Part shown: positions 5,187 to 49,987 of the stretch, one piece after another
Position numbering within the stretch: position 1 is the first letter of the stretch
How the letters are laid out: each line of letters opens with the position of its first letter
Source of the DNA: Profundibacter sp.
GTDB lineage: Bacteria; Pseudomonadota; Alphaproteobacteria; Rhodobacterales; Rhodobacteraceae
Assembly (NCBI RefSeq): GCF_965277155.1
Contig: NZ_CBDIBV010000007.1
Span: forward strand, 37,305-101,304
Reading direction: 5' to 3'
DNA: 64,000 nt
The notes under the pieces: model-generated
What the model saw: only the letters and a program-made list of their open reading frames with translations
What the model was told of the DNA's origin: nothing
Database searches by the model: none
Translations under genes and position numbers: made by a program

Positions 5187-6874
5187 CACCCTACCTCGCC
5201 CTTGAAATGTTTCATGGTCAGCCGGATCGCGTTCGGCGCAGCCTGCCCCAGCCCGCAAATGCTGGCATCCGCCATCGCCTGACACAGCTCTTCCAGCAGC
5301 GGCATGTCCCAGTGATCGGCCTGCATCAGTTTCACCGCCTTTTCGCACCCCACCCGGCAGGGGGTGCATTGGCCGCAGCTTTCATCCTCGAAAAACCGCA
5401 GCATGTTCAGGGCGGCGGCCCGCGCGCTGTCCTGATCGGACAGGATCACCACGGCGGCCGAGCCGATGAAGGAGCCATGTGGCTGCAGCGTGTCGAAATC
5501 CAGCGGGATATCGTCCATGCTGGCGGGCAACAGGCCCGAAGACGGCCCGCCCGGCTGATAGGCCATGAAACTGTGACCCTCCAGCATTCCTCCTGCCGCC
5601 GCTATAATATCGGTGATGGTGGATCCGGTCGGCAGCAGATACACACCTGGCCGGTTCACCCGCCCTGACACGGAATAGCTGCGCAGCCCTTTGCGGCCGT
5701 TCTTCTCGACCGAATTCAGCACCTCCGGCCCCTCGCGACACACCCGCGCCACCCAATGCAGGGTCTCGACGTTATGCACCAGCGTGGGGCAGCCAAACAG
5801 GCCGACTTCGGCAACAAACGGCGGACGGTGCCGGGGCAAACCGCGCTTGCCCTCGACGCTCTCGATCATCGCGCTTTCCTCGCCGCAGATATAGGCGCCC
5901 GCGCCGCGCCGCAGCTCGATAAAGCCTTTTGGAACAATAGCTTTGCCTTCCAGCGCCTTGATTTCACGACGCAATATCTCAATCACTGCCGGATATTCAT
6001 CGCGCATGTAAATATAGCAACGCTCGGCCTCAACCGCCCAGGCGGCAATCAGCATCCCCTCCAGCATCAGATGGGGGGTGCGTTCCAGATAGTAACGGTC
6101 CTTGAAGGTGCCCGGCTCGCCCTCGTCCCCGTTCACGGCCAGATAGCGCGGGCCAGCGTTACCCCGCACGAACCCCCATTTGGTGCCGGAGGGAAACCCT
6201 GCGCCGCCAAGCCCGCGCTGGCCGGACGTCAGGATTTTCTCCTGCACCCGCTCCCAGTCCCCGCTATCACGCAGGCGCTGCAATTCAACGTACCCGCCAT
6301 CGGCCATATAGGCCGCCAAATTCTGATAGTCAGGGATATGCACATGGGTATCCCCAGCCGCAACCGCCGCCTGAACCGTTTCAACCGTCGCGTGGTCAAT
6401 ATGGTTATGTCCCAGTTCCACCACCGGCGCGGTGTCACAACGGCCCATGCAAGGTGCGCGAACCACCCGCACTTCACCCGCGTCCAGCCCGCTTTCCAAA
6501 GCCGCCTGCAACTGCGCCGCCCCCGCCATTTCACAGGACAGGCTATCGCAAACCCGAATAGTTAACGCAGGTGGCGGGGTCTCGCCCTCTTTCACCACAT
6601 CAAAATGGGCGTAAAAACTGGCGACCTCGTAAACCTCGGCCTGACTGATGCGCATTTCTTCGGCCAGAGCGCGAAGATGGGGGGCGGACAGATGGCCATA
6701 GGTATCCTGCAAAATATGCAGGTTCTCAATCAGCATATCACGGGCCATCCGGTCGGACGTAATCAGCCCCCGAACCTCGTTCCACGCGCTGTCATCCAGT
6801 TGCCGCCCCTTGGGAACATGCCGCCCCTTGCCACGCCCCGATTTCCAGATGCCGGATGTATCGTCCTTGGCCAT
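5186..6874 (-). CDS. fdsB: formate dehydrogenase beta subunit, NuoE-like (FdsG) + NuoF-like (FdsB) fusion
   Basis: The N-terminal ~150 aa carry a thioredoxin-like 2Fe-2S pattern (CDSLSC..CMGRCDTAP). The rest is NuoF-like (GLGGAGFPSGTKW, ESCGQCTPCR). Start chosen at MAKDDTSG (6874); a TTG at 6892 is also possible. Confidence 0.85.
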   Translation of the reverse strand: MAKDDTSGIWKSGRGKGRHVPKGRQLDDSAWNEVRGLITSDRMARDMLIENLHILQDTYGHLSAPHLRALAEEMRISQAEVYEVASFYAHFDVVKEGETPPPALTIRVCDSLSCEMAGAAQLQAALESGLDAGEVRVVRAPCMGRCDTAPVVELGHNHIDHATVETVQAAVAAGDTHVHIPDYQNLAAYMADGGYVELQRLRDSGDWERVQEKILTSGQRGLGGAGFPSGTKWGFVRGNAGPRYLAVNGDEGEPGTFKDRYYLERTPHLMLEGMLIAAWAVEAERCYIYMRDEYPAVIEILRREIKALEGKAIVPKGFIELRRGAGAYICGEESAMIESVEGKRGLPRHRPPFVAEVGLFGCPTLVHNVETLHWVARVCREGPEVLNSVEKNGRKGLRSYSVSGRVNRPGVYLLPTGSTITDIIAAAGGMLEGHSFMAYQPGGPSSGLLPASMDDIPLDFDTLQPHGSFIGSAAVVILSDQDSARAAALNMLRFFEDESCGQCTPCRVGCEKAVKLMQADHWDMPLLEELCQAMADASICGLGQAAPNAIRLTMKHFKGEVG

Positions 6875-7024
6875 GTCCTTGCCCCGCTGCAAAACAATCT
6901 CGATTGTGAGTCTCTGCCCCTAAGGGGCACAGTTCAAGATTTAATTACACCTAATGGGACGATCATCATATGTAATCCGCGACATTGGTGTGGTGATTGG
7001 CGACATGGGGTTGTGCCGCCTGAC

Positions 7025-7119: not shown

Positions 7120-7207
7120 GCCACAAATACCTCCCGAGCGGAGCGGGAATCGCCCCGAAGGGGCCAAAAACAGAGCGCGCCGCAAGGCGCACCGCTGAAT
7201 CAGCGCA
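7120..7207 (-). repeat. Degenerate inverted copy of the same repeat (tail-to-tail with 7025-7111)
   Basis: The reverse complement ends ..CGGGAGGTATTTGTGGCAAGAAGAAAG and mirrors the tail of copy 1 across a 9-nt centre. The upstream part is GC-hairpin rich but diverged. Confidence 0.5.
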
Positions 7208-9266
7208 ACGCGGCTTCGATATTGCCGCCGTCCACCGTCATCACATGCGCCGTGGTGCGTTCGGACATCGCCAGCGCCACGAAAGCATCGGCCACATGGC
7301 GGGCCTCGACCTCGCGGCGGATCAGGTTGCCGGCCATATAGGTGCCCTCGTCAATGCCGCGGGCCTTTGCGCGTTCCTTGATGAAATCATCATCCAGCAG
7401 GCCCGAGCGGATACGATCGGCGTTGATGCCGTTCACCCGCACGCCCATAGGTCCCAGCTCCAGTGCGAACTGGCGTAGCAAGAAGAACGTCGCGGCCTTG
7501 GGCAGGCCATAGGCGCCGAACCCCTTGCCCGGGTTCACCGCCTGTTTCGAGACGTTATAGAGCAACTGCCCGCCGCGCCCCTGTGTCTGGAACACCTTCG
7601 CGGCAGCCTTGGAGAATGTCTGATGGGCAAAGAAGTTCAACTCGAAGCTTTTGCGTAAGCTTGCGTCATCCAGATCGATCATTTCACCCGTCCAGGCCGC
7701 GCCCGCGTTGGAGACCAGAATATCCACCCCGCCAAAGCGCGCCACGCAGGCATCAATCGCCTTTTGCGCCGCCCCACCGGCCGTGATGTCCAGCGCAATG
7801 CCGTCGTGGTCCGGCCCCAGTTGTTCCAGCCCCTTGTCCAGCGCCTCGTCAAACAGATCGACCAGCAGGATATTGGCGCCCAGATCGGCAAAGGCCTGTG
7901 CGGTGGCCAGCCCGATTGCCCCGCCGCCACCGGTAACGATCACCGTATGGCCGGCAAAACGCGGGTAGTTGCGCGAGGGCAGTTTGGCCTGTTCCAGCGA
8001 CCAGTATTCCATGTCGAACAGATCTTCTTCGCCCACAGGGTGGAATCCGCCGCAATCCTCGCCCATGCTCATGGCGGCAATGTTCTGTTCCGCCAGATCG
8101 GCGGCGATACGGGCCTCGCCTGCGTTTGCGCCCATGCCGATGATGCCGATCCCTTCGATCCAGGCCATATCCGGCACAGGGTTCAGCATGATCTTGCCGC
8201 CGCCAACGCGGGCGTTGTTGCGTTCGAAATAGGCCTTGTAATCCGCGATATAGGCGTCAACAGCGGAGGCAATCGCATCGGCGCCACCGGCCAGTATTTG
8301 CGTGGTCAGAACCAGTGGGAAATTCTTGGTGCGGATCACATGATCGGGCGTTGCCACCCCGCGTTTGGCCAGGTCCTGCCAATCCGCGCGGGCCAGAAAT
8401 TCCTGCACATTGTCGCCTGCCCGCAGATCCATCACCGGCATGAAAGTATCGCGATTGCCCAGAAATTCGGCGCGCCGCGCGCCAAGAATACCGCGCAGAA
8501 CCGGCATCACCTGAACCGCTTTGGCCTTGGTTGCCGCATCCGCCGGGCCGGACAGTTTCAACTTGCGTCCCATCTTCTGCGCCACCCAGTCCTCGACCAT
8601 GTTCACATGGGTGATCATCCGGTCATAAGCCAGCTTTGCGCTGTCGCCAAAGGTGAAATGCCCGTGGTTCAGCAAAAGCAAACCCTCGACTTCGGGATTG
8701 GCCTCGTAAACTGCGGCCGCCGCCTTGCCCAGATCAAACCCCGGCATGTGGAAGGGCACAACGGCCACCTTGCCGCCGAAAATCTCGTCCACCACCGCAG
8801 CCGCATTCGGCAGATCGGCAATCGCCAGCATCGTGGTGGCGTGGGTGTGGTCGATAAAACCGTGCGGCAGATAGGCGTGCAGCAGGATTTCAACCGACGG
8901 ATTCGGCCCGCTGGCGTCCAGCATGTTGCAACGCACGGTGTTCACCATGTCCTCGTCACTTAGGCCATCCAGTGCGCGCAGGGCCAGCAGCGGCTCCAGC
9001 CGCACCGCCGGCATCCCAGCCGGGGTGATCTGCGCCAGATCATGGCCGCTGCCCTTCACATGCAGCACCTTCACATCATTGCCGAACAAATCCTTGCGCA
9101 CCACCTTGCAGGATGTATTGCCGCCGCCGTGCTGCACCAGCGCCATACCGGCCCCCAACAGCCGCGAGGCATAAGCCTGAACCGCCAGATCCTGATCGGC
9201 CGGATCACCCCCCGCCTCTGCCGCAATCTTTTTTGCCTCGATGTCGTCCCAACGGTTTGCAACCAT
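7200..9266 (-). CDS. bifunctional class II aldolase / short-chain dehydrogenase (RhaD/RhaEW-type)
   Basis: 688 aa from MVANRWDD. The N-terminal domain has the HGGGNTSCKV block of rhamnulose-1-P aldolase-type fusions. The C-terminal ~250 aa form an SDR (TGGGGAIGLATA Rossmann motif, YGLPKAA catalytic Y-x3-K). Confidence 0.85.
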   Translation of the reverse strand: MVANRWDDIEAKKIAAEAGGDPADQDLAVQAYASRLLGAGMALVQHGGGNTSCKVVRKDLFGNDVKVLHVKGSGHDLAQITPAGMPAVRLEPLLALRALDGLSDEDMVNTVRCNMLDASGPNPSVEILLHAYLPHGFIDHTHATTMLAIADLPNAAAVVDEIFGGKVAVVPFHMPGFDLGKAAAAVYEANPEVEGLLLLNHGHFTFGDSAKLAYDRMITHVNMVEDWVAQKMGRKLKLSGPADAATKAKAVQVMPVLRGILGARRAEFLGNRDTFMPVMDLRAGDNVQEFLARADWQDLAKRGVATPDHVIRTKNFPLVLTTQILAGGADAIASAVDAYIADYKAYFERNNARVGGGKIMLNPVPDMAWIEGIGIIGMGANAGEARIAADLAEQNIAAMSMGEDCGGFHPVGEEDLFDMEYWSLEQAKLPSRNYPRFAGHTVIVTGGGGAIGLATAQAFADLGANILLVDLFDEALDKGLEQLGPDHDGIALDITAGGAAQKAIDACVARFGGVDILVSNAGAAWTGEMIDLDDASLRKSFELNFFAHQTFSKAAAKVFQTQGRGGQLLYNVSKQAVNPGKGFGAYGLPKAATFFLLRQFALELGPMGVRVNGINADRIRSGLLDDDFIKERAKARGIDEGTYMAGNLIRREVEARHVADAFVALAMSERTTAHVMTVDGGNIEAALR

Positions 9267-9314
9267 GATGCACCTGTGTAATTTCTGATCCATGCCTCGC
9301 CAAACGGGGCTTTT

Positions 9315-9326
9315 TGACAATTGTCA
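9315..9326. promoter_or_regulatory. 12-bp perfect palindrome TGACAATTGTCA in the aldolase-SDR / sorC divergent spacer
   Basis: Read directly. Same TGTCA/TGACA half-site as the palindrome at 12993-13010, with a further TGTCA at 9335-9339. Confidence 0.35.
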
Positions 9327-9359
9327 GTATATAGTGTCAAATATAAATAAGGAATAGAA

Positions 9360-10331
9360 ATGGCAACAGTCACGCGCAGACGAAACACCGGGCAGGTCAC
9401 GGGCGAAAGCATCGTGATCGAGGCGGCGTGGCTGTATTACCATGATGGCATGAACCAGACCGAAATTGCCAGCCATCTGGGCGTTTCGCGCGCCACAGTG
9501 GTCAACTACCTGCAAGAGGCCAAGGAACGCGGGTATATCCGCATATCGCTGGCGCCCAAGGCATTCACCACCCACCGGCTGGCCGAGGAAATGCGCGAAC
9601 GCTTTGGCTTGGCGGCGGTTTATGTGGTGCCCGACGGCACCGGTACCGAGGAAGACGCACTGTTGCGGGTGGCGCGCGGGGCGGCGGAATGGCTGCCATC
9701 CTTGCTGGAACCGGGTGACAAGCTGGGCGTGTCCTGGGGGCGCACGGTTTACGAGATGGCCGAGGCCATGCCGCAGGTGCAGACCGATCATATCACCGTG
9801 TCGCAACTGGTGGGGTCGATGGCCACGCCCTACGGGTTTACCGCCGAAATCTGTTCCGCCCATCTGGCACAGCGGCTGGGCGCCAAATTGATCAACCTGC
9901 ACGCCCCGGCGGTTCTGAGCGATCCCGAACTGGCGGCCCGCCTGCGGGCCGAGCCGATTATACGAGATCAAATAGACGCGTTAAGCCACTGTAACAAAGC
10001 GATATTTGCCGCTGGCTCATGTGACCACAGCAGCCATATCGTCAGCAGCGGCTTGGCCAGCCATTCCGATCTGGACTGGTATATTAAACGTGGAGCTACC
10101 GGCGTGTTATGCGGCCGGTTCATTGACGCTGCCGGGCAGTTCATTCCGGGCGAACTGGATGACCGGATGATCGGGGTGGAGCTGGACAAATTGCAAGGGC
10201 TGGACATGGGCCTGCTGGTTTCGGTCGGGGCCGACAAGGTGGCCCCGATGCTGGCGGCAATCGCCGGTGGCTATGTGACCCATGTGGTGACCAGCGTGGC
10301 CACCGCCAAGGGGATGCTGACGGCAAGCTGA
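9360..10331 (+). CDS. SorC/DeoR-type sugar-binding transcriptional regulator
   Basis: 323 aa. N-terminal HTH block AAWLYYHDGMNQTEIASHLGVSRATVVNYL followed by a sugar-phosphate binding domain. This is the same family as LsrR/DeoR(Bs)/SorC. Confidence 0.85.
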   Translation: MATVTRRRNTGQVTGESIVIEAAWLYYHDGMNQTEIASHLGVSRATVVNYLQEAKERGYIRISLAPKAFTTHRLAEEMRERFGLAAVYVVPDGTGTEEDALLRVARGAAEWLPSLLEPGDKLGVSWGRTVYEMAEAMPQVQTDHITVSQLVGSMATPYGFTAEICSAHLAQRLGAKLINLHAPAVLSDPELAARLRAEPIIRDQIDALSHCNKAIFAAGSCDHSSHIVSSGLASHSDLDWYIKRGATGVLCGRFIDAAGQFIPGELDDRMIGVELDKLQGLDMGLLVSVGADKVAPMLAAIAGGYVTHVVTSVATAKGMLTAS

Positions 10332-10418
10332 TAGCTGCTATTCCAAGGATTGTTCGAGCGGTAGATTGCTGTGCGGCCATTGCCGCTAACAAATCTGTCT
10401 AGATAAATCATCTGTCAG

Positions 10419-10472
10419 AAAAAAGCCCCGCCTGATCTCTGGTTACGATAAATAACATATAACAGGCGGGGC
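10419..10472 (-). terminator. hairpin GCCCCGCCTG..CAGGCGGGGC followed by U6 on the minus strand (downstream of mtnA)
   Basis: 10-bp GC stem read directly with a long 28-nt loop. The A6 at 10419-10424 gives the U-run on the minus strand. Confidence 0.5.
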
Positions 10473-10490
10473 TGATCCGTGAGTGGATCT

Positions 10491-11591
10491 CTAGTTCTGC
10501 ACCCTGTCAGGGAACATCGCGGCCAACCCTTCTGGCGAGGCTTCGCAAACGCCGCGTTCGGTGATCAGGCCGGTGACCAGACGCCGTGGTGTGACGTCGA
10601 ATGCCGGGTTGCCCCCCGGCGTGCCATCGGGGCTGATCTGCACTTCGGTCACGGTTCCGTCGGCCAGTTTTCCCTGCACATGGGTGACTTCGGTATCGGT
10701 GCGTTCCTCGATCGGGATTTCGGCAACGCCGTCCTTGACTGTCCAGTCGATCGTGGGGGATGGCAGCGCCACATAGAAGGGCACGTTGTTGTCCTTGGCC
10801 GCTAGCGCCTTCAGGTAGGTGCCGATCTTGTTGCAGACATCGCCATGCGCCGTGGTGCGGTCGGTGCCAACGATGCAAAGGTCAACCTGCCCGTGCTGCA
10901 TAAGGTGTCCACCTGCGTTATCGACGATCAGGTGATGCGGAATGCCGTGGCTGTTCATTTCCCATGCAGTCAGCAAAGCGCCCTGATTGCGCGGGCGGGT
11001 TTCATCGACCCAAACTTGGATCGGGATGCCGTCCTGCACCGCATGATACATCGGGCTGGTGGCGGTGCCCCAATCGACCGTGGCCAACCAGCCTGCGTTA
11101 CAGTGGGTCAGGATATTCACCACCTCGCCCGGCTTTTTCTTGGCAGCGATTTCGCGAATGATCTCAAGGCCATGCACGCCGATCATGCGGTTGCATTCCA
11201 CGTCTTCATCGGCAATTTCATGCGCCCGTTTCATCGCAGCCGCCGCGCGTTCACCTTCAGGCAGCGGTTTTAGCAGCGCGGTCATTTCGTCCAGCGCCCA
11301 ACGCAGGTTGATCGCGGTGGGGCGGGTTTCGTGCAGGATGTTCCATGTTAAAACCAGCGATTTGTCGGACGGGTCTAACGCCATCTGCACGGCCACACCA
11401 TAGGCGGCGGTGGCGCCGATCAATGGGGCGCCCCGCACCCACATATCGCGGATCGCCACCACGAAATCATCGCGGGTTTTTAGGTCAACCACGCGGAATT
11501 CATGCGGCAGCCAGCGCTGGTCAATGATCTGCACCTGCCCGCTTGGCTGATCGAACCAGATCGAACGGTAATGTTTATCGCCTACTTTCAT
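10491..11591 (-). CDS. mtnA: S-methyl-5-thioribose-1-phosphate isomerase family (MtnA/DrdI-like)
   Basis: 366 aa from [14 protein letters not shown]. Has [23 protein letters not shown] and [21 protein letters not shown] blocks typical of MtnA. The ATGA overlaps the mtnK stop. Confidence 0.9.
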
Positions 11592-12862
11592 GACTCTTTC
11601 CTTTGTCCAATCATACGCGCCTGTGAAATCACGTTGTCCAAATCTGCAAATGCCGCCCTGTTCACGGCCAGCGAGCGGCCCAAGCGCAGGCCCCTGCCCT
11701 CGCACTCGGCGCGCATCGCTTCATCCTCGATCAAATCGTTTTCGGCGATATGGGCCAGGCTAAGTGTGCGGCGGATCATTTCCACACCGGCAAAGCCCAG
11801 TGTGTCCTCGAAAATATGCTTGAGCCGCGCCGCAAGCGCCTGTTCCGACGCCAGATTGTCGCCCTGATCTTCGAACAGGCTGGCCTGATACAGGATGCCG
11901 TTGCGCTCGGTCCGCCACAGGTGCGAGAATTCATCGCAGAACCCGTGCCAGATTTCGCTGATCACGCCCAGAATCCATTCCTGATAGTCCGCCCGCGCCC
12001 CTTCGGATTCGGCGTGACCGGGTTGGGCGTAATAGGCCATAAAGAAGTTGGCCAGCAACATGCCGATGTCAAAGCCCATCGGGCCATAGGTGACAAATTC
12101 GGGATCAATCACCATGGTATCGGTGTCTGTCACCATGATCGAGCCGGTGTGCAGATCGCCATGCAGCATGGTTTCGGCGTTGTTGGCGAATTTCGCCTTC
12201 ATGTCCTGCGCAGCGACCTTCAGGTCAATGTCGGCCCGCAGCCGTTTTACCAGATCATCCAGACCCGGCGTGTGGTGGTTCAGCTCGGCCTCAAAGTAAG
12301 GGTCGGAAAACACAAGGTTTTCGGTGATGTCACATAGTTCGGCATTGTCGGCAAACAGTGCCAGATCGGCCTTGCGTTTGGCGGTGTCCATCGACAGGTC
12401 CGAGCCACGGAACATGGTCTTGCCCAGATAATCCCCCATCACAGCGGCAAGCCCGTCATGTTTTTTGCCGGCCATCAGCGAATGGCGCAGGATGATGTGC
12501 GGCGTTAAGAACTCCATCACGATCAGCGCCTGATCCTCGTCGAAATGATAGATTTCCGGCACCAGACCCGGCGCGCGTTCCTCTTGGCGGATCAAGGCGT
12601 GATATTCAAAGAACGCCCGTTTCAGCGGCAAGGGCCAACTGTCACCGACCAGCCGCACGTAAGGCAGCGCTTGTTTAACGATCACGGCGCCCTTGGGGCT
12701 TTTGACGATGAACACAAGGTTCAGGTTGCCATCCCCCACTTCATCCGCAACCCATGCGGATGTATCCTCTCCCAAGCGTTCCGTAACAGCCGAAATCCCG
12801 CCCAACCGCGCGGGAATCGTTTCTACCGTTAAGGGTTCGTAACCGGAGCTTTGTTCTGACAT
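11588..12862 (-). CDS. mtnK: S-methyl-5-thioribose kinase family (MtnK/DrdK-like)
   Basis: 424 aa from MSEQSS, with GGAGGGG 5 nt upstream. Has GDGNLNLVF, the [11 protein letters not shown] block and an aminoglycoside-kinase-like [11 protein letters not shown] motif. Confidence 0.9.
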
Positions 12863-12992
12863 GGTCCCCTCCATCCTTGGGATCGGCCCCGTTTAACCCT
12901 ATATTTCAAAGGGTTTCGGACAGATCCGCTTTATCGCCCCGTCCTTGAGAAACGCGGCTTGTTAGACATAGCATTGTAAACAGATCGTCATT

Positions 12993-13010
12993 TGTCAATG
13001 GCCATTGACA
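12993..13010. promoter_or_regulatory. 18-bp perfect palindrome TGTCAATGGCCATTGACA (candidate operator, two back-to-back TTGACA boxes)
   Basis: Read directly; the reverse complement is identical. Lies in the 184-bp mtnK / ABC divergent spacer. Confidence 0.5.
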
Positions 13011-13032
13011 TTTGATCACAACGCCATAAGAT
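13005..13032 (+). promoter_or_regulatory. sigma70-like promoter for the ABC/FucU/Rpe/LsrF operon
   Basis: -35 TTGACA (13005-13010), a 16-nt spacer and -10 TAAGAT (13027-13032), 26 nt upstream of the ATG at 13059. Confidence 0.4.
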
Positions 13033-13058
13033 TGCTTGATATCGGGGGAAGGATAAGC

Positions 13059-14591
13059 ATGTCCAAGGCTGCTGTTGAAATTCAGGGACTGACAAAAGCG
13101 TTCGGCACAAACCGTGTGCTGCGTGGTATTGATCTGGAACTGAATTCTGGCGAAGTGACCGTGTTGATGGGCGCCAATGGCGCTGGAAAATCAACGCTGG
13201 TCAAGGTGATCTGCGGCGTTCACCCTGCTGACACCGGCACAATCCGTCTGCACGGGGAAGAGTTGAAAACCACCACCCCGTCCGAGGCAATCCGCGCCGG
13301 TATCGTCACCGTTCACCAGAATATCAATGACGGGGTGATTCCCGATCTGGATGTGGCCTCGAACCTGATGCTGGACACGTTGGCCGAACCCAAAAGCGGG
13401 TTTTTCCTGAAACGCCGCGAGATCCGGCAAAAGGCACGCGAACTGGCCGGGTCCATGGGGCTGGATGTGGACGTAAACCAGCCGGTTAACGAGTTGGCGC
13501 TGGCCGACCGCCAGTTGGTCGCCATTGCCCGCGCGATGGCACATGAACCCAAACTGATGATTCTGGACGAACCCACCTCGTCCCTGTCTGCAACCGAGGC
13601 CGCGCGGCTGTTCACCCTGCTGGACCGTTTGCGCGATGCGGGTGTGGCCATTCTGTATATCTCGCACCGGACCAGCGACATCCACCGCATCGCCGACCGG
13701 ATTGTCAGCATGCGTGACGGCGAAATTGTTGGCACATTCGAGCAAAAGCCGCTGGATTACGAGGCCGCTGTAAACGCCATGCTGGGCCACAAAATGTCCG
13801 AGGTTGATCTGGACATCAAATCCGCTGGCCAGCCGGTGCTGGAACTGAAAGACCTGCAAATTCGCGAAGGCACAGCCAAAATAAACCTGACCGTCCACGC
13901 AGACGAGGTTCTGGCGATTACCGGTCTGGTCGGATCGGGCAAATCCGAACTGGCGGCCATTCTGTATGGGCTGAAGAAACCCGCAGGCGGCAGCATGTCC
14001 CTGCTGGGAAAACCCTATAATCCGAAATCCCCGCGCCATGCGATTGATACCGGTGTGTTCATGTGCGCCAAGGATCGCGGCACCAATGGTGTTTTGCAGG
14101 ATCACAACCTGACCAAAAACATCACTGCCCCGTTTCTGGCGCGGTTTTCCACCCTGTCCTTTGTCAACCGCCGGCGCGAGGCCCGCGCAACCCGAAATAT
14201 GATTTCGGACCTGGGCATTGTCTGCCAGTCCGAGCAGGACGATATCGGCACCCTGTCGGGCGGAAACCAGCAAAAGGTGGTGATCGGCCGCTGGTTAAGC
14301 CAGCCATCCGATTTGTTGATACTGGACGAGCCGTTTCAAGGCGTCGACATCAAGGCCCGCCGCGACATCGGTGCAAAAATCCGCGAAACGGCCAAGGGGC
14401 GGGCGACCATCGTTCTGGCCGCGGAAATGGACGAGGTTCTGGAAATCGCCGACCGGATCATTGTGCTGGCGGATCATGCCATCGTTGGCGAGCACCGCAA
14501 CATCGATCTGGACGTAAAACAGGTGGTGGCCGAAGTTGCAGGCATGACAAACGGCACCAATGGACAAACCAATACTCAAGTGAACGGATAA
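13059..14591 (+). CDS. sugar ABC transporter ATP-binding protein (CUT2, duplicated ATPase)
   Basis: 510 aa from MSKAAVEIQGL, with GGGGGAAGGA upstream. First Walker A GANGAGKST; second signature LSGGNQQKV. Confidence 0.9.
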   Translation: MSKAAVEIQGLTKAFGTNRVLRGIDLELNSGEVTVLMGANGAGKSTLVKVICGVHPADTGTIRLHGEELKTTTPSEAIRAGIVTVHQNINDGVIPDLDVASNLMLDTLAEPKSGFFLKRREIRQKARELAGSMGLDVDVNQPVNELALADRQLVAIARAMAHEPKLMILDEPTSSLSATEAARLFTLLDRLRDAGVAILYISHRTSDIHRIADRIVSMRDGEIVGTFEQKPLDYEAAVNAMLGHKMSEVDLDIKSAGQPVLELKDLQIREGTAKINLTVHADEVLAITGLVGSGKSELAAILYGLKKPAGGSMSLLGKPYNPKSPRHAIDTGVFMCAKDRGTNGVLQDHNLTKNITAPFLARFSTLSFVNRRREARATRNMISDLGIVCQSEQDDIGTLSGGNQQKVVIGRWLSQPSDLLILDEPFQGVDIKARRDIGAKIRETAKGRATIVLAAEMDEVLEIADRIIVLADHAIVGEHRNIDLDVKQVVAEVAGMTNGTNGQTNTQVNG

Positions 14592-14597
14592 CCGAAA

Positions 14598-15644
14598 ATG
14601 CAGGACGGCACGAATACGCACAAAGACATGGCGCCAAAGAAAACGCTGGTGGATTATGCCATCCGTTACGGGTTTCTGACCCTTCTTGCGGGGCTGCTGA
14701 TCTTTTTCTCGGTGGCAACCGACGGCTTCCTTAGCCCCTATAGCGCGGTGTTCATTTTCCAGTCGGTCGCGATCACCGGTATTCTGGCGCTGGGTGTCAC
14801 ATTCACACTGGTGGTGGACGGGTTCGACCTGTCGATCGGATCGACCGCCACCTCGGCGCTGATGCTATCGGCCTATATGATGGTGGTGCTGGGCACCGGC
14901 GTGGTGCCTGCGGTGCTGGCCTGTCTGGTAATGGGCGCGCTGATCGGGCTGGTGAACGGGCTGCTGATCGTAAAGATGAAGGTGCCCGACCTGTTGGCGA
15001 CATTGGGTATGATGTTCCTGCTGATCGGTTTGCAACGGATCCCGACCGAAGGACGGTCCATCGCCACCGGTATGAAACTGCCCGATGGCAGCACCGCGAA
15101 TGGCACGTTTTCACCTGAATTCCTGTGGCTGGGCCGTCACCGGTTCGATTTTTTCATTGATAACCTGATCCCGGTTTCGGTGGTCATTCTGGTGATCGTG
15201 GCCATCCTGTGCTGGGTGTTTTTGGAACTGACCCGCCATGGTCGGCTGATGTATGCCATCGGATCGAACCAGCGGGCAGCGGCACTGGCGGGAACCAATG
15301 TGAATCGCTATAAAATTCTGGCCTATATGATTTCCGGCGTGCTGGCCTCGGTCGGGGGTATCCTGCTGGCGGCGCGTCTGGGGCGGGGTGATATCGCCTC
15401 GGGCAATAACCTGCTGCTGGATTCCGTGGCCGCCGCATTGATCGGTTATGCGGTGATGGGTGCGGCCAAACCGAACGCCTTTGGCACAGCCATCGGGGCG
15501 CTGTTTGTCGGCATCCTGCTGCAAGGGCTGACGATGATGAACGCCCCTTACTATACACAGGATTTCGTTAAGGGGGCGGTGCTTGTGATTGCCCTCGTCT
15601 TTACCTTCGTGCTGACGGGTCGGCGCGGCGGATCAACCCACTAG
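14598..15644 (+). CDS. sugar ABC transporter permease (single permease gene)
   Basis: 348 aa, multi-TM, of the RbsC/AraH type (..AAALAGTNVNRYKILAYMISG..). Confidence 0.9.
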   Translation: MQDGTNTHKDMAPKKTLVDYAIRYGFLTLLAGLLIFFSVATDGFLSPYSAVFIFQSVAITGILALGVTFTLVVDGFDLSIGSTATSALMLSAYMMVVLGTGVVPAVLACLVMGALIGLVNGLLIVKMKVPDLLATLGMMFLLIGLQRIPTEGRSIATGMKLPDGSTANGTFSPEFLWLGRHRFDFFIDNLIPVSVVILVIVAILCWVFLELTRHGRLMYAIGSNQRAAALAGTNVNRYKILAYMISGVLASVGGILLAARLGRGDIASGNNLLLDSVAAALIGYAVMGAAKPNAFGTAIGALFVGILLQGLTMMNAPYYTQDFVKGAVLVIALVFTFVLTGRRGGSTH

Positions 15645-15679
15645 ACTGCACTACAAATTAAAAAAGGGAGAACCATAAT

Positions 15680-16732
15680 ATGAAACTTACACGACGTATC
15701 GTTCTGGGTATGGCAGGCGGGATTGCAGCACTTGCAACCGGCTTTGCCAGCCCGACATTCGCAGGCGACATGCCGGCACCTTTCGACAATGCAGGGGATG
15801 TGAAAATTGCACTGGTGCGCTATCTGTCCACCGGCGATTTCTTTCAGGCCTATCTGTCGGGTGTTGAAGCACAATCCGCTGCCCTTGGTGTTGACCTGCG
15901 GGTATTCGACAGCCGCCAGGACGCCGCATTGCAGGCCGACATGGTGGACCAGGCCATCGCCCTTGGGGTTGATGGCATCATCATCCAGCACGGTCTGACC
16001 GAATCCATGCAAGAGGCCGCACAACGTGCCATTGATGCCGGGATCAAGGTTGTGGCGTTTGACGTGAACGTCAAAAATGACGCGATCCCGCAAGTCGAAC
16101 AATCCGACCGTGATCTGGCCCGTCTGGCGCTGGAACAAGCGATCAAGGACAATGGCACATCATTCAAGGCCGGTTACGTTTACGTTGCCGGTATTGCCCC
16201 GCTGGATCGTCGCGACGAAACATGGGTCAAGGTAAAAGAAGCCAACCCGGGCATCGAAGAAGTCGCCCAGTTCGGCACGCTGGACAACCCGATTGCCAAC
16301 TCTGTTGCCAATCAGGCCCGTTCGGTTCTGCAGGCCCATCCCGACATTCAGGTGATGTTCGCCCCCTACGACGAATTCGCCAAAGGTGTCAAAATCGCTG
16401 TGGACGAAGCCGGCCTGAACGAGCAGATCAAGATTTATTCGGCCGACGTGTCCACCGCCGACATTTCCGCCATGCGCGAACCTAACAGCGCATGGGCCGC
16501 AACTGCCGCCACCAACCCTGCTGTTGTGGGCGAAGTTTCGGTGCGGGCATTGGCAATGTTGCTGGCTGGCGAAGACCCAGGCCACAACGTGATCATTCCG
16601 CCCACCCTGATCACTCAGGCCATGCTGCAAGACAAAGACATCAAGAATATGGAAGAACTGTCGGCCAAACTGCCCCAGTTCGCCCACGCCGATGTTGCCG
16701 TGCCAGCATGGATGCCCCTGCCCCCGCGCTAA
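15680..16732 (+). CDS. periplasmic sugar-binding protein (PBP type I)
   Basis: 350 aa with a signal peptide (MKLTRRIVLGMAGGIAALATGFA) and a ribose-type SBP body. Ligand unknown; I see no obvious LsrB signature. Confidence 0.85.
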   Translation: MKLTRRIVLGMAGGIAALATGFASPTFAGDMPAPFDNAGDVKIALVRYLSTGDFFQAYLSGVEAQSAALGVDLRVFDSRQDAALQADMVDQAIALGVDGIIIQHGLTESMQEAAQRAIDAGIKVVAFDVNVKNDAIPQVEQSDRDLARLALEQAIKDNGTSFKAGYVYVAGIAPLDRRDETWVKVKEANPGIEEVAQFGTLDNPIANSVANQARSVLQAHPDIQVMFAPYDEFAKGVKIAVDEAGLNEQIKIYSADVSTADISAMREPNSAWAATAATNPAVVGEVSVRALAMLLAGEDPGHNVIIPPTLITQAMLQDKDIKNMEELSAKLPQFAHADVAVPAWMPLPPR

Positions 16733-16805
16733 GGGTCAGGTGACGTGATAACAACGGGGGCTGCGGCAAAACTGGTCGCGGCCCCCATTTACGGTAAAGG
16801 AGCAG

Positions 16806-17252
16806 ATGATGCTGATCGGAATAGACGCCAATATGACGCCTGATTTGCTGGATTGCCTGATGCGCATGGGGCATGGCGATGAAATCGTTGTTGCCGATGC
16901 CAATTTCCCTGCCACCTCGACCGCCGCCCATACCCAATGGGGCGACGTGATCCCCCTGCCCGCCATGATGGCCCCCGATGCGATCAAACTGATCACCGGC
17001 GTGATGCCTCTGGACGGGTTCGCCGATGCTTGCGCCCTGCGCATGCAGATTGACAATACGCCCGACGAAATGGGCGAGGTGCATAGACAAGCCTTTGACA
17101 TTCTATCCGCCGCCATGCCCGAAGGTGCCGCCCTTGGCAGCCTGGAGCGACAGGAATTCTATCAGCGCGCCCGTGATGCCTTTGGGGTAGTTGCCACCAC
17201 CGACATGCGGCCCTATGGCTGCTTTATCTTGCGCAAAGGTGTGATCTTTTAG
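16806..17252 (+). CDS. RbsD/FucU family sugar mutarotase/pyranase
   Basis: 148 aa with MGHGDEIVVADANFP, matching the FucU HGDEI..D..FP motif. AAGGAG SD upstream. Confidence 0.85.
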   Translation: MMLIGIDANMTPDLLDCLMRMGHGDEIVVADANFPATSTAAHTQWGDVIPLPAMMAPDAIKLITGVMPLDGFADACALRMQIDNTPDEMGEVHRQAFDILSAAMPEGAALGSLERQEFYQRARDAFGVVATTDMRPYGCFILRKGVIF

Positions 17253-17259
17253 GAACGAC

Positions 17260-17940
17260 ATGATGAGCATCGACGATCTGAAATCCCGCGCCAAAGGCAT
17301 CAGCCTTGGCCTGTTTGCCGCCGATCTGGGAAACCTGCGCCGCGCGGCGCAAAACGTGGCCGAGTGGGGTTGCAACATCCTGCATTTCGACATCATGGAC
17401 GGCGTGTTCGTGCCACAGATGATCGGTGGCCCCGGCTTTGTCGCCGCGATGGACCTTGGCCTGCTGCGCGATGTGCATCTGATGGTGCAAAACCCCGCCG
17501 CCCATGTGGAAAGCTATATCAAGGCCGGTGCCGATATGATCACCGTTCACGCTGAATCCGATAACGCAACCGAAGCGATCAAAATCATTCAGGCATCCAA
17601 CCGCCCCGTCATGGCCGGTCTGGCCCTGATGCCCGGCACCACGCTGGAGGATGCAGCCCCCCTGCTGGCGCTGAACCCCGATATGATCCTTGTGCTGTCA
17701 CTGGACCCGCGTGGCACCCGAGCCGACATCACCGCCGCCTGCACCCGCCTGACCGAGCTGCGCGAAACCGCCCCCAATGCGGTGCTTGCCTTTGATGGCG
17801 GTGTCACGCTGGACAGCATTACAGAAATAGCTGCCTGCGCGCCCGATATGGTGGTCAGCGGCAGCGCCGTTCTGGGCGCCAAGAAACCCAAACGTGCCTT
17901 TGCCGCAATGGTCAAGGCGCTTGAAACCGCTAACACTTAA
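17260..17940 (+). CDS. ribulose-phosphate 3-epimerase family protein (divergent)
   Basis: 226 aa with [12 protein letters not shown] (Rpe H-x-D-x-MDG-x-FVP) and a C-terminal GG..L..I.....D..V.GSA pattern. Confidence 0.8.
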
Positions 17941-17963
17941 ACCCGAAAAGACAGGAACACGAC

Positions 17964-18845
17964 ATGGCAGATATTGATGACATCAAGGACGGCAAAGACT
18001 TTGGCCTGAACACCCCGCAGGACAAACAGGGCTTTTTCCTGAAGGGCCTTGCCAATTACGACTGGGGCATCAAAAATAAGATGAGCCGCATCTTTAACCC
18101 GAAAACCGGCCGCACCGTTATGCTGGCCTTTGACCACGGCTATTTCCAGGGGCCGACAAAGGGTCTGGAACGGATCGACCTGAACATCCTGCCACTGGCC
18201 GAACATGCCGATGTGTTGATGTGTACCCGTGGCGTTCTTCGCTCGATGATCCCGCCAACCCTGACCAAACCGATTGTGATGCGCGCCTCTGGTGGTAACT
18301 CGATCCTGTCGGAACTGTCGAACGAAACCATTGCGGTTGCGATGGATGATGCGGTTCGCATGGGCGTTTGCGCGATGGCCGCACAGGTCTATATCGGGGC
18401 GGAATACGAACATAAGTCCATCACCAACGTGATCCGCCTGATTGACGAAGGCATGCGCGTGGGCATCCCGACACTGGCCGTCTCCGGCGTTGGCAAAGAC
18501 ATGGCCCGCGATGCGCGCTACTTTGGTCTGGCCACCCGGATCGCTGCCGAAATCGGCTCGCATTACGTCAAAAGCTACTTCATCGAGGAAGGCTTTGAAA
18601 AAGTCGTTGCCGGTTGCCCTGTGCCGATCGTGATTGCAGGTGGTAAAAAGCTGCCCGAACTGGACGCGCTGGACATGGCGTTCCGCGCTGTTGATCAGGG
18701 CGCTGCCGGTGTCGATATGGGTCGCAACATCTTCCAATCGGACGCCCCTGTTGCAATGATCAAAGCGGTTTCCAAGGTTGTGCATGAACTGATGCCCGCC
18801 AAGCAGGCCTATGAACTGTATAACGATCTGAAATCCGAAGGCTGA
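17964..18845 (+). CDS. lsrF: LsrF-like class I (DhnA-fold) aldolase/thiolase
   Basis: 293 aa. [13 protein letters not shown].., [52 protein letters not shown] and [11 protein letters not shown] are near-identical to blocks I recall from E. coli LsrF. This has not been aligned computationally. Confidence 0.8.
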
Positions 18846-18911: not shown

Positions 18912-18952
18912 AAAAAAACCGCGGCCGTTTTACCGGTCGCGGTTTTGTTTTT
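18912..18952. terminator. bidirectional terminator between convergent genes
   Basis: A7, then the stem ACCGCGGCCG/CGGTCGCGGT, then TTTTGTTTTT. Confidence 0.65.
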
Positions 18953-20583: not shown

Positions 20584-21865
20584 GGGAACCTCTGTAAATT
20601 CCCGTTTTCGCCTTCTTCGCGGCGGGGTGGACGGTTTTTCGCCTGTCCCGCCTGATTGCTTCGGATCATAAACCCATTTTCACCGGTTTCAAGCCGGTTT
20701 TGGGTATTTCAGGCACACCTCACCCCATGAACCCTTATCCCGGCGCCGCCAGGCCGCATTCGAACTGGACGAAGCGCTTCATGTTGTAGACCAGGTTCAT
20801 CATCCCGATGCGAAATCGCGCCCGCTTCAGGCCGATGGAGCGGATCAGCTTGCCGCCCATGGAGCGCTCCTGAAAAGCGAATACATGCTCGACCCGGACC
20901 CGCACTTTCGAGCGCCTCCGGTTGGCCTTTTGCTGGCGCTCGCCAAGCGGCTTGCCGCGCCTGCCCTTGTGATGGATATGGCTGTGAAGCCCCCGCTCTT
21001 CCAGCTCGCTTTCGATCTTTTGCGAGCGATAGGCGCTGTCGGCCCACAGGTCCGATGAGGTGTTGCTCGCATCAATCAGACCGGCAAGCGCCTGGCTGTC
21101 ATGCACGGCGGCATCGGTGACATCATAAGCGCGGATGAATTTGTGCCGCCGGTCGACATTGATGTGGTTCTTGTAGCCGTAATAGCTCTTGCCGTGCTTC
21201 TTCGTCCAGCGCGCATCCACGTCCTTCTGGCGCTTCTTGTGGGGTTTTTCCTCCCACTCTTCAGGCGTTTCGCCCGCCTTGATTTTCTCGTTCTCGTCCC
21301 TTTTGTTGTGCTGGCGCGGCGCCGGAACGATGCTCGCATCAACAATCTGCCCGCCCATCGCCAGATAGCCCTTTTCGCGCAGAAAGGCATCGAACTTGTC
21401 AAACAGCTCCTTCATCTTCCCGGCCCCGGCCAGCCTTTCACGGTAGGCCCAGATGGTCTTGGCGTCAGGTACGCTGTCTTCAATGCCAAGGCCGAGAAAC
21501 CGCATGAACGACAGGCGGTCGCGGATCTGATACTCGATCTGATCGTCAGAGAGGTTGTAGAGCTGCTGCAAAACCATCGTCTTGAATATCAGCACCTCAT
21601 CCCAAGGCGGGCGGCCAGCGTTGGATTTGCGCTGTTCGGGCGGCGTGCGCCATATGGCCTTCAGCTCGTCCCGGTAATCCTCGAACGGCACCATGTCGTT
21701 GAGCAACACCAGCGGATCACCAGATTTGTCCAGTCCCGCGTATCGGCTGGAAAGATCAAAAAATCCCATCTGACCCATGACAAAACCCCGTCGGTCGAAT
21801 CATTTTCATCCTGATGACGATTCTACCCCGTCAGGCCGGATTTTGGGGGATTTTTAGAGGTTCCC
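20584..21865 (-). mobile_element. IS5-family element type A, copy 1 (1282 bp)
   Basis: Terminal IRs are GGGAACCTCTGTAAATTCCC and GGGAACCTCTAAAAATCCCC (right end, reverse complement). By eye it is identical to 48526-49807. No target duplication at this copy. Confidence 0.9.
20735..21778 (-). CDS. IS5-family DDE transposase (347 aa)
   Basis: DDE_Tnp_1-type sequence (..DASIVPAP.., KHGKSYYGYKNHINVD, ADSAYRS). Confidence 0.9.
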   Translation of the reverse strand: MGQMGFFDLSSRYAGLDKSGDPLVLLNDMVPFEDYRDELKAIWRTPPEQRKSNAGRPPWDEVLIFKTMVLQQLYNLSDDQIEYQIRDRLSFMRFLGLGIEDSVPDAKTIWAYRERLAGAGKMKELFDKFDAFLREKGYLAMGGQIVDASIVPAPRQHNKRDENEKIKAGETPEEWEEKPHKKRQKDVDARWTKKHGKSYYGYKNHINVDRRHKFIRAYDVTDAAVHDSQALAGLIDASNTSSDLWADSAYRSQKIESELEERGLHSHIHHKGRRGKPLGERQQKANRRRSKVRVRVEHVFAFQERSMGGKLIRSIGLKRARFRIGMMNLVYNMKRFVQFECGLAAPG

Positions 21866-22688
21866 CTCAGGTTGCATGGAATGGCAGCTTGCGCCCATGA
21901 TCTGCTGTCCGCGCGCAAGCCGCCAAGTCTGACCACAGCGATAAGGCAACTGATCGACGCCGAGACTGTAGAGCGCCGGGTGCGCTCCATCCAGTATCAA
22001 ATGAGGGTTGCGAAGTTCCCCCATCACAAGGACTTCGCCACCTTCGATTACAGCGCCGCCGCCCTCACCCAGGCCCAGATCGAACCATTCTGCACCGGCC
22101 AGTTCACAGAGGAGGCCCATAACCTCATCCTGGTGGGCGGAACCGGCACGGGCAAAACCCACATCGCCATCGCGCTGGGAACGACGCTGATCAACAACGG
22201 CAAGAAGGCGCGCTTCTTCAACGCCGTCGATCTGATCAACGCCCTGATCAAGGAACAGGCCGACGGCAATGCAGGGAAGATCATCCGGCAGCTCTCGGCT
22301 TTGGACTGCGTCATCATCGACGAGCTGGGCTACATCCCGTTTCCCAAATCCGGTGGCGCGTTGCTCTTCCATCTGATCAGCAAGCTCTACGAGAAGACCA
22401 GCATCATCATCACAACCAACCTTGAGTTCGGTGAATGGGTCTCGGTCTTCGGGGATGCCAAGATGACAACCGCCCTTCTGGATCGCGTCACTCATCACTG
22501 CAACATCATCGAAACCGGCAATACCTCATACCGGTTCGCCCAGAGTAAACGCCGTAGAAAAAACTAGCCGTTCCGCAAGCAAAGCCCCCAGACGGACTCG
22601 CTACATGAAGGCGGCCCGACTGGGGGCTTTGCGCCACAAAGGGGGGGGCAAATTTAAATGCCGAAACCGGGTCAGTTTTAAATGCTCA
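21866..22688 (+). mobile_element. IS21-family remnant (3' part only: truncated istB plus right end)
   Basis: Abuts the IS5 copy directly. The right end carries repeated TTTAAATGC motifs and ends ..GCTCA at 22688. Confidence 0.65.
21872..22567 (+). pseudogene. IstB-like ATP-binding helper protein, N-terminally truncated
   Basis: Walker [10 protein letters not shown] and Walker [10 protein letters not shown], ending ..[19 protein letters not shown]. Lacks the first ~25-30 residues, and no istA lies upstream. Confidence 0.75.
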
Positions 22689-49807: not shown

Positions 49808-49987
49808 TAATGATATACGATCACACACAAGTATCTGCATATACCTTTGGTTTATGGGTGAAATCCCCCTACAATACATAAAGTTTGCCCCAAGAATGGT
49901 GATATTTACCTTTCCTTCATTCGCACGGGGTGATGTAACCCTAGAAACAATTTGAATAAGATTCGACGAAAGCAAGGGAGATCACGC

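Follow-up and report, generated by a model that had tools for sequence, protein, structure and literature searches.

A predicted island for 5-deoxyribose or 5-methylthioribose uptake and catabolism in a Profundibacter contig, with a putative LsrF-type back end

Why should a thiolase of the kind that acts in autoinducer-2 (AI-2) catabolism stand behind a sugar importer, a kinase and an isomerase of 5-methylthioribose (MTR) metabolism? The question is raised by a ten-gene island in a stretch of 64,000 nucleotides from Profundibacter sp. (contig NZ_CBDIBV010000007.1, positions 37,305 to 101,304; the whole stretch is called the window below). Every cell with radical-SAM enzymes (SAM, S-adenosylmethionine) or polyamine synthesis makes 5′-deoxyadenosine and methylthioadenosine (MTA), the sugar parts of which are either toxic or lost as carbon. 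Clusters known for their disposal are far from universal (PMC6079011). The island very probably handles 5-deoxyribose or MTR. Its fuller description, as a regulated uptake-and-catabolism unit for SAM-derived 5-deoxyribose, probably also MTR, in which the sugar phosphate would be oxidised, epimerised and thiolysed, is favoured here with the scales about level. From gene identities, operon structure, conservation and module co-occurrence, all taken from the sequence and its comparison, we infer the oxidation, epimerisation and thiolysis steps and the ligand of the binding protein.

The ten open reading frames (ORFs) of the island were placed by ORF listing and their domains assigned by Pfam and NCBIfam scans, which reproduced the genes, coordinates and domains of a first-pass annotation made from the letters alone. 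The ATGA overlap of the mtnK stop with the mtnA start, the divergent layout and the strong terminator after lsrF were likewise all found where that annotation had put them. The features are as follows.

7200..9266, minus strand: fusion of a long Aldolase_II domain with a short-chain dehydrogenase (SDR) domain, ‘bifunctional aldolase/short-chain dehydrogenase’ (Pfam PF00596 and PF00106; NF006192)
9360..10331, plus strand: SorC/DeoR-type sugar-binding regulator, MtnR-like (PF04198)
10491..11591, minus strand: MtnA (TIGR00512, 423 bits, cutoff 279)
11588..12862, minus strand: MtnK, 5-methylthioribose kinase (TIGR01767, 485 bits, cutoff 275)
13059..14591, plus strand: sugar ABC transporter ATPase with two ABC domains (Pfam, NCBIfam; ribosome-binding site and ATG at 13059)
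14598..15644, plus strand: single ABC permease, BPD_transp_2 (Pfam, NCBIfam)
15680..16732, plus strand: periplasmic binding protein (SBP) of the MtrB / 4RY8 type (PF13407)
16806..17252, plus strand: RbsD/FucU-family mutarotase homologue (PF05025)
17260..17940, plus strand: predicted Rpe-family, LsrE-like sugar-phosphate 3-epimerase (PF00834; below the Rpe cutoffs)
17964..18845, plus strand: predicted LsrF orthologue, 3-hydroxy-5-phosphonooxypentane-2,4-dione thiolase (NF006081, 505 bits, cutoff 297)
7174..7193, minus strand: terminator-like hairpin after the fusion gene (8-bp stem)
18915..18946, plus strand: strong intrinsic terminator closing the ABC-to-LsrF operon (13-bp stem, 8 GC pairs, T tail)
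9315..9342, no strand: candidate operator in the fusion/SorC intergenic region (TGACAATTGTCA plus TGTCAAAT)
12993..13010, no strand: candidate operator of the SorC regulator in the mtnK/ABC intergenic region, an 18-bp perfect palindrome (TGTCAATGGCCATTGACA)

MtnK, which is identical to a 424-residue gene call (P0001), and MtnA pass their equivalog models. This supports the substrate class given in the first-pass annotation, 5-deoxyribose or MTR, and the order of kinase then isomerase; gene order and SBP type support the coupling to an ABC importer. An MtrACB-like importer, with a sugar of this class as the predicted ligand of its SBP, would bring the substrate in, and the FucU homologue would equilibrate its anomers. 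Neither 5-deoxyribose nor MTR has a 5-OH, so both exist in furanose forms only. MtnK would then yield the 1-phosphate and MtnA 5-deoxy-(or 5-methylthio-)ribulose-1-phosphate. A comparison of formulas made here reveals that 5-deoxyribulose-1-phosphate (CH3-CHOH-CHOH-CO-CH2OP) minus 2H at C4 is 3-hydroxy-2,4-pentanedione-5-phosphate (P-HPD, CH3-CO-CHOH-CO-CH2OP), so that a single NAD+-dependent step separates the LsrF back end from the front end of kinase and isomerase. This step would fall to the fusion's SDR domain, oxidising the C4 hydroxyl of 5-deoxyribulose-1-phosphate with NAD+ to give P-HPD, the LsrF substrate. The LsrE-like enzyme of the Rpe family, to which P-HPD looks like 1-deoxy-4-keto-ribulose/xylulose-5-phosphate, would epimerise C3, and LsrF would move the acetyl group to coenzyme A (CoA), leaving dihydroxyacetone phosphate (DHAP) plus acetyl-CoA. 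For the aldolase-like domain of the fusion two roles are conceivable, hydrolytic cleavage of the diketone or the work of a plain aldolase in a branch running alongside. MTR, passing through the same steps, would presumably end as methylthioacetyl-CoA. In one relative from the Rhodobacteraceae (L107:1007-2356) a family III CoA-transferase lies next to mtnA, in place of SorC regulator and fusion; it may be relevant to this last product, since it hints at a non-standard acyl-CoA such as methylthioacetyl-CoA.

Over 288 residues the predicted LsrF shares ∼70% identity with E. coli LsrF (3gkf/4p2v), and the Schiff-base lysines are aligned. As summarised in PMC8016206, the E. coli enzyme transfers the acetyl group of P-HPD, or of its hydrate, to CoA and thereby gives DHAP and acetyl-CoA. 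LsrF homologues 80–82% identical to that of the window also stand alone in Rhodobacter capsulatus and on another large contig (L017:10001-10876 and L019:10001-10882), with no lsr, mtn or Rpe genes within 10 kb.

Whether these back-end genes belong with MtnK and MtnA was addressed by comparison. An MtnK search of genome contigs gave 12 close loci, with metagenome-assembled Marinosulfonomonas genomes (Rhodobacteraceae) as the nearest assemblies; plasmid and metagenome collections were added for breadth. The same island is present in other Marinosulfonomonas/Rhodobacteraceae assemblies (L001, L004, L011 and L106), so the arrangement is not due to chance, and the co-conservation that the first-pass annotation had put up for a neighbourhood check is borne out. 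The Rpe-like and LsrF genes lie inside the importer operon in the window and in L001, L003, L004, L011, L024, L106 and L107; in the window the genes from importer to lsrF have a single terminator, after lsrF, consistent with co-transcription. At least 14 top MtnK homologues lie on contigs equal in length to those of top LsrF homologues (2 confirmed directly). The strongest evidence that the predicted LsrF and Rpe-like enzymes are part of an MTR/5-deoxyribose pathway is found in operons of unrelated lineage. A contig of an Oceanithermus metagenome-assembled genome (MAG; L109) and a second assembly (L110) carry one co-directional operon RpiR-SBP-ATPase-permease-MtnA-MtnK-Rpe-LsrF-Zn-dependent dehydrogenase, without any class II aldolase, and L061 has the same core, likewise without one. 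LsrF of L109 passes the LsrF equivalog (353 bits, cutoff 297), and the dehydrogenase of L109 is nearest to L-threonine 3-dehydrogenase, scyllo-inosose dehydrogenase (IolM) and galactitol-1-phosphate dehydrogenase (GatD-like), not to primary-alcohol or aldehyde reductases (AdhP, Ahr). L110 has in addition a second MtnA paralogue and a split transketolase.

The occurrence of this back end with MtnK and MtnA but without class II aldolase bears on the first-pass annotation. Its view of the fusion as a RhaD-type aldolase that performs the cleavage is probably wrong, and DHAP with a free C2 aldehyde is a less likely pair of products than DHAP with acetyl-CoA. The Rpe-like and LsrF genes, which that annotation left as unexplained extras, are shown by the comparison to make up, together with a dehydrogenase, a predicted conserved back end.

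Metagenomes extend this pattern. Eighty loci with an alignment to the Rpe-like protein were retrieved, and LsrF is adjacent in 29. Wherever an LsrF–Rpe locus has at least 2.3 kb of downstream sequence (14 loci), an SDR comes next; half of these are Aldolase_II-SDR fusions (7) and half an SDR alone (7), and in two of the latter a short class II aldolase lies upstream. For L050, where the SDR stands alone, the top match of this SDR is the SDR half of the fusion family (NF006196, 333 bits). Judged by such neighbourhoods, LsrF, the Rpe-like gene and a dehydrogenase constitute a recurrent putative back-end module. Other front ends are joined to it. One, with an FGGY kinase and a GlpD-like dehydrogenase, is found on plasmids of Sagittula (L020) and Shinella (L021), on a 3.9-Mb metagenome contig (L018) and on a Rhizobiaceae MAG contig (L108); further ones have a UPF0261 protein (L050, L053, L056) or LsrK/LsrG. 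The FGGY kinase of the Sagittula cluster was considered as an LsrK orthologue and rejected at 26% identity. UPF0261, LsrF, Rpe-like protein and SDR form a conserved four-gene unit (L050:7603-11458, L053:7742-11484, L056:1282-4999), preceded in L050 by an AraC-type regulator, and UPF0261 may serve as kinase or front end in another entry into the LsrF-Rpe-SDR back end. One LsrF-Rpe-fusion locus has pdxJ as its next gene (L057:12891-13598). The substrate of PdxJ is 1-deoxyxylulose-5-phosphate; oxidised at C4, this compound would also give P-HPD, and the neighbourhood is perhaps a coincidence.

The Rpe-like protein keeps the H-x-D, H and D metal/acid-base residues invariant. It is only 29% identical to Salmonella LsrE, for which reason orthology with that protein was rejected. 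Its nearest relatives outside MTR-type clusters (50–56% identity) are situated between lsrG and lsrA in canonical lsr operons (lsrK-lsrR / lsrG-...-lsrB; L026–L029), and the label LsrE-like is retained only because of these closer relatives. The fusion passes NF006192 (862 bits, cutoff 639) and fails the RhaD equivalog TIGR02632 (426 bits, cutoff 568); given this failure, ∼31% identity to annotated rhizobial RhaD and no rha genes nearby, a RhaD or rhamnose identity was rejected. In its aldolase-like half the class II metal/catalytic residues GGGNTS, S-x-E, H-x-H and H-G are invariant, and the long Aldolase_II domain is 22–28% identical to FucA and Ald2. The longest ORF of the fusion runs to 9320; as the family model begins at residue 21, translation probably starts from the ATG at 9266. 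A stand-alone FucA-like class II aldolase of ∼215 residues (Ald2/DrdA) was found neither in the island nor in the window by ORF listing and tblastn. In S. meliloti, the pSymB lsr operon lsrA-C-D-B ends in a 416-residue ‘class II aldolase’ (L103:9019-10269), at the position of LsrF in enteric bacteria. This aldolase-like protein is 42% identical to the N-terminal half of the window fusion, and a homologue search over plasmid records gave no LsrF for Sinorhizobium; if the aldolase-like domain cleaved the diketone by hydrolysis, this case would be explained too.

The front end is of a known kind, comprising an MtrACB-like importer, a FucU homologue, MtnK, MtnA and a SorC/DeoR-type repressor. The best PDB matches of the SBP are 4ry8 (222 bits) and then Yersinia 5ulb (146 bits), with LsrB at ∼36 bits. 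We take 4ry8 to be a structure from the Enzyme Function Initiative, of a Thermotoga binding protein with bound MTR. In gene order and SBP similarity the ribose-type ATPase-permease-SBP set adjoining mtnK/mtnA matches the MtrACB-type arrangement of an MTR importer, and in enterobacteria mtrACB (with mtrY), a predicted MTR transporter, adjoins mtnK/mtnA (2011, PMC3228920). The RbsD/FucU gene is present in most relatives, not all. Clusters of kinase, isomerase and aldolase for 5-deoxyribose, with sugar transporters and a fucose-mutarotase homologue, were described in 2018, when salvage of exogenous 5-deoxyribose was explicitly suggested (PMC6079011). The 2024–2025 literature (PMC10986504, PMC12632272) adds the MtnR repressor and the use of exogenous 5-deoxyribose for growth through the DHAP shunt: the E. 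coli shunt operon mtnK-mtnA-ald2-transporter is repressed by MtnR, of the DeoR/SorC type, and serves growth on 5-deoxyribose (PMC12632272). The suggestion of the first-pass annotation that no cluster of this composition had been characterised thus fails for the front end (PMC6079011, PMC3228920, PMC10986504, PMC12632272) and holds for the back end only.

The ABC+mtnK+mtnA core reaches well past this genus and has other companions elsewhere. Besides the Marinosulfonomonas relatives, Neptunicoccus cionae (L010) and an uncultured contig of the Rhodobacteraceae (L012) have it, both together with a stand-alone class II aldolase. Plasmids from Mariluticola, Brucella anthropi, Pararhizobium and Sinorhizobium carry the core as well. 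After the core, at the place occupied by Rpe and LsrF in the window, a transketolase split in two (DXS-like N half, C half) and a RuBisCO-like protein (RLP) are encoded in Neptunicoccus (L010:2904-5038), in the uncultured Rhodobacteraceae contig (L012:755-3878) and on plasmids of Mariluticola, Brucella anthropi (pOANT04) and Pararhizobium (L013:12359-15415, L015:11132-14186, L016:12357-15420). No description of this cluster type, with RLP and split transketolase, was found in the literature. In L007, MtnA (5696-6784) is 96% identical to that of the window and the adjacent MtnK (4425-5687) only 71%, a disparity that suggests a putative recombination inside the mtnKA pair.

The island also appears to be under common control. 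The top NCBIfam match of the SorC regulator is the Bacillus-type DeoR (191 bits); against the LsrR model it stays below the cutoff (133 bits, cutoff 486), with 29% identity to Salmonella LsrR. In a promoter scan the palindrome TGTCAATGGCCATTGACA between mtnK and the ABC genes overlaps a −35-like TTGACA. The motif AAATGTCAA-N5/6-TTGACA(A/T)(A/T)T is kept in L001–L004, L011, L013, L015 and L016, and, with an altered left flank, also in L006 and L007; this candidate operator motif spans Rhodobacteraceae and Hyphomicrobiales plasmids, i.e. it extends across orders. The candidate operator between fusion and SorC gene is conserved in L001, L004, L007 and L011. TGTCAA/TTGACA half-sites are common to the two candidate operators, which argues that both divergent units belong to one regulon. 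A SorC/DeoR-type repressor would control both divergent promoters via the TGTCAA/TTGACA inverted repeats.

Five known systems help to place the island. With the DHAP shunt, or 5-deoxyribose salvage, of E. coli ATCC 25922, Rhodospirillum rubrum and Bacillus thuringiensis, it shares the kinase (MtnK/DrdK), then the isomerase (MtnA/DrdI), and the DHAP product proposed here; the sugar transporters and fucose-mutarotase homologue of some shunt clusters (PMC6079011) and the DeoR/SorC-type MtnR of E. coli (PMC12632272) have counterparts in the window too. It differs in having no stand-alone FucA-like aldolase (Ald2/DrdA) but the Aldolase_II(long)-SDR fusion, the Rpe-family enzyme and LsrF, and in the predicted C2 product, acetyl-CoA or acetate and not a free aldehyde. 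The Lsr system of AI-2 (LsrACDB, LsrK, LsrR, LsrG, LsrF and Salmonella LsrE) likewise combines LsrF with a neighbouring Rpe-family gene, sets a SorC-family regulator and a kinase divergently from an ABC-to-LsrF operon, and has P-HPD as the proposed common intermediate. However, the window SBP is not LsrB (LsrB model 32 bits, cutoff 384), there is one permease instead of LsrC and LsrD, the kinase is MtnK with the APH fold and not the FGGY kinase LsrK, the isomerase is MtnA and not the ABM-fold LsrG, the regulator is below the LsrR cutoff, and the substrate stands one oxidation step below DPD (4,5-dihydroxy-2,3-pentanedione). RhaEW and rhizobial RhaD have the same two-domain architecture and catalytic residues as the fusion. 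To the latter, known from its sequence, the overall NAD+-dependent reaction of RhaEW, from ketose-1-phosphate to DHAP and an acid, is likened here, although the fusion is of another subfamily and is linked to mtnA/mtnK or lsrF, not to rhamnose genes. Tdh/Kbl follow the logic of the proposed back end, with CH3-CHOH- converted to CH3-CO- before a CoA-dependent C–C cleavage to acetyl-CoA. This is an analogy only: the substrates are unrelated, and so are the cleaving enzymes, Kbl depending on pyridoxal phosphate where LsrF forms a Schiff base; the L109 dehydrogenase is Tdh-like. Finally, the MTA-isoprenoid shunt of R. rubrum, in which an RLP isomerase acts on methylthioribulose-1-phosphate, also branches after MtnA, and its likeness extends to the RLP and split transketolase of the island relatives; the window itself has no RLP, cupin or transketolase.

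Several points weigh against oxidation, epimerisation and thiolysis. No report of P-HPD formation from 5-deoxyribulose-1-phosphate was found in the literature. In L003 and L107 no fusion gene lies next to the cluster, so the dehydrogenase would need to be encoded elsewhere. The fusion alone directly follows mtnA in Ruegeria (L104), and in Hyphomicrobiales plasmids it accompanies RLP and split transketolase, not Rpe and LsrF; in these contexts the fusion can therefore work without LsrF. Since its aldolase-like domain keeps all metal/catalytic residues, it may simply cleave the ketose-1-phosphate, making LsrF redundant. The authors of the RhaEW study took the SDR domain for an aldehyde dehydrogenase (PMC3870299). 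Lastly, the epimerase step and its place in the sequence are guesses, the Rpe-like protein being so distant from Salmonella LsrE. For the reading stands that RhaEW, given rhamnulose-1-phosphate without NAD+, formed neither DHAP nor lactate, the dehydrogenase domain being apparently essential for aldolase activity (PMC3870299); this need for NAD+ fits an oxidation that precedes C–C cleavage in the fusion family.

Two alternatives keep the substrate class and differ in chemistry, and both are improbable. In one, the island is a DHAP shunt with a class I aldolase: the Rpe-like enzyme would turn 5-deoxy-D-ribulose-1-phosphate (3R) to the xylulose (3S) configuration, the LsrF-like protein, as a DhnA-type aldolase, would release DHAP and acetaldehyde or methylthioacetaldehyde, and the SDR or Zn-dehydrogenase would only oxidise or reduce that aldehyde. 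LsrF does have the fold of class I aldolases, with FbaB and ADH synthase among its relatives, an aldehyde-handling dehydrogenase comes next in the known DHAP shunt, RhaW was published as a lactaldehyde dehydrogenase, and the trio of Rpe, LsrF and dehydrogenase without class II aldolase (L109, L110, L061) fits equally well. Such a shunt would, however, leave two aldolases in the window and assign another reaction to a protein closely similar to an E. coli enzyme with reported CoA-dependent thiolysis of P-HPD; the L109 dehydrogenase is nearer to secondary-alcohol dehydrogenases (Tdh, IolM, GatD-like) than to AdhP/Ahr, and cleavage by RhaEW required NAD+. In the other alternative, given similarly little credence, the pathway has two branches after MtnA. 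The fusion would perform the full DHAP-shunt step, as aldolase and aldehyde dehydrogenase, for both substrates, and Rpe and LsrF would serve a second purpose: either the removal of diketones of the P-DPD/P-HPD type, or the release of methanethiol from methylthioribulose-1-phosphate by enediol chemistry followed by LsrF cleavage of the diketone; RLP and split transketolase would be an alternative second branch. This suits the combinatorial pattern of the genomes, {Ald2 or fusion} × {RLP+transketolase or Rpe+LsrF}, the fusion alone after mtnA in Ruegeria, and L003 and L107, where Rpe and LsrF occur without fusion; by our own mass balance, methylthioribulose-1-phosphate minus CH3SH has the formula of phospho-AI-2. 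Yet the dehydrogenase, not needed by a two-branch model, is the invariant neighbour of LsrF and Rpe, close relatives of the Rpe-like protein belong to canonical lsr operons, which need no thiol elimination, and a lyase activity of this sort is without precedent in the Rpe family. Methanethiol elimination was demoted on account of the invariant dehydrogenase and of the service of the Rpe subfamily in lsr operons.

The other explanations are unlikely. That mtnK/mtnA and the importer do no more than supply a classical methionine salvage encoded elsewhere (MtnB/C/D or MtnW/X), with fusion, Rpe and LsrF as unrelated neighbours, is quite improbable, even though MtnK and MtnA count as canonical equivalogs, no back end lies near the ABC+mtnK+mtnA genes of S. 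meliloti pSymB, and the present data cover the 64-kb window, not the rest of the genome. The back-end genes lie in the importer operon or share a candidate operator, and the linkage is kept across Rhodobacteraceae, the Oceanithermus MAG and the second assembly. By Pfam and NCBIfam the island has no MtnB/MtnC/MtnD-type genes, as the first-pass annotation had noted, and no MtnB/C/D/N/P-type protein was seen either among 20 further window ORFs scanned with Pfam (of ∼60 ORFs called, ∼20 smaller ones were unscanned, and no search was made by those names). A non-orthologous system for uptake and degradation of AI-2 (DPD), with MtnK for LsrK and MtnA for LsrG, would account for LsrF, the LsrE-like gene and the lsr-like layout of SorC regulator and kinase divergent from the ABC-LsrF operon, but it is very unlikely. 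The SBP is far closer to 4ry8 than to LsrB (222 bits versus ∼36 bits), there is one permease, not two, and neither an FGGY kinase nor LsrG was found in the window by tblastn; the reference panel used, which included Salmonella LsrK and LsrG, also gave no match within the 64 kb to LsrB, RLP, split transketolase or stand-alone Ald2. MtnK acts on the anomeric C1-OH, LsrK on C5 of DPD, and MtnK and MtnA are far above their own equivalog cutoffs. Least credible of all is an island serving the catabolism of a classical sugar, deoxy-hexose or pentose (rhamnose, fucose or ribose), like rhizobial rhamnose loci. To it would belong the fusion architecture common to RhaD/RhaEW, the FucU homologue and the ribose-type ABC system; the fusion fails the RhaD equivalog and is only distantly similar to rhizobial RhaD, RhaI, RhaK and RhaS are absent from the island, and the kinase and isomerase are MtnK and MtnA.

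The back end of fusion, Rpe and LsrF looks new, being a recurrent module of which no description was found in the literature; a search that paired LsrF with 5-deoxyribose or methylthioribose gave no relevant result there. By gene content, the module most likely joins the salvage of 5-deoxyribose with that step of AI-2 catabolism in which the thiolase acts on P-HPD. It is tempting to go further, in a proposal that we regard as tentative and rather less than an even bet: P-HPD would be a hub common to two pathways of SAM by-products, LsrF, Rpe-like enzyme and C4 dehydrogenase would form a widespread route for disposal of 5-deoxyribose to DHAP and acetyl-CoA, and the ‘quenching’ of AI-2 by Lsr would be one special application of that back end. 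Equally tentative are its corollaries, namely that the whole Aldolase_II-SDR family, including RhaEW, would oxidise the ketose-1-phosphate before cleavage, and that LsrE would be a 3-epimerase of P-HPD (or of a deoxypentulose phosphate). If true, a route by dehydrogenase, epimerase and thiolase avoids free acetaldehyde and keeps the C2 unit as acetyl-CoA. It would provide a function for the long-orphan LsrE and for many LsrF homologues outside Lsr operons, such as the stand-alone copy of Rhodobacter capsulatus (80% identical), tie quorum-signal degradation biochemically to the salvage of SAM by-products, and make the mechanism of RhaEW-type enzymes worth re-examining. Marine Rhodobacteraceae would then scavenge exogenous 5-deoxyribose and MTR as a source of carbon, perhaps of sulfur.

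The surroundings of the island are of a different nature. On one side lie genes resembling NAD-formate dehydrogenase, on the other an OmpA/PBP-like gene and then insertion sequence (IS) elements. The NAD-dependent formate-dehydrogenase-like pair (Nuo51/2Fe-2S subunit and molybdopterin subunit; 2433-6892) is immediately upstream of the fusion gene and also syntenic in L001, L004 and L011; its members are probably unrelated neighbours of the island. The window is heavily loaded with IS elements, one of them <2 kb from the right end of the island. Four IS5-type DDE transposase genes are present (20735-21778, 29258-30301, 48677-49720 and 52702-53586); the copies at 20735 and 48677 have identical Pfam scores, and the IS copy at 48524-49809 has 22-nt terminal inverted repeats. 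Other mobile-element genes, at 21872-22567 and 35492-36742, are an IS21 IstB gene and a Mutator-family transposase. An ORF of 669 residues (31846-33855), near a CbiD gene (27939-28988), combines TP_methylase (tetrapyrrole methylase) with a CobB/CbiA-type amidotransferase, a fusion that is unusual in cobalamin synthesis.

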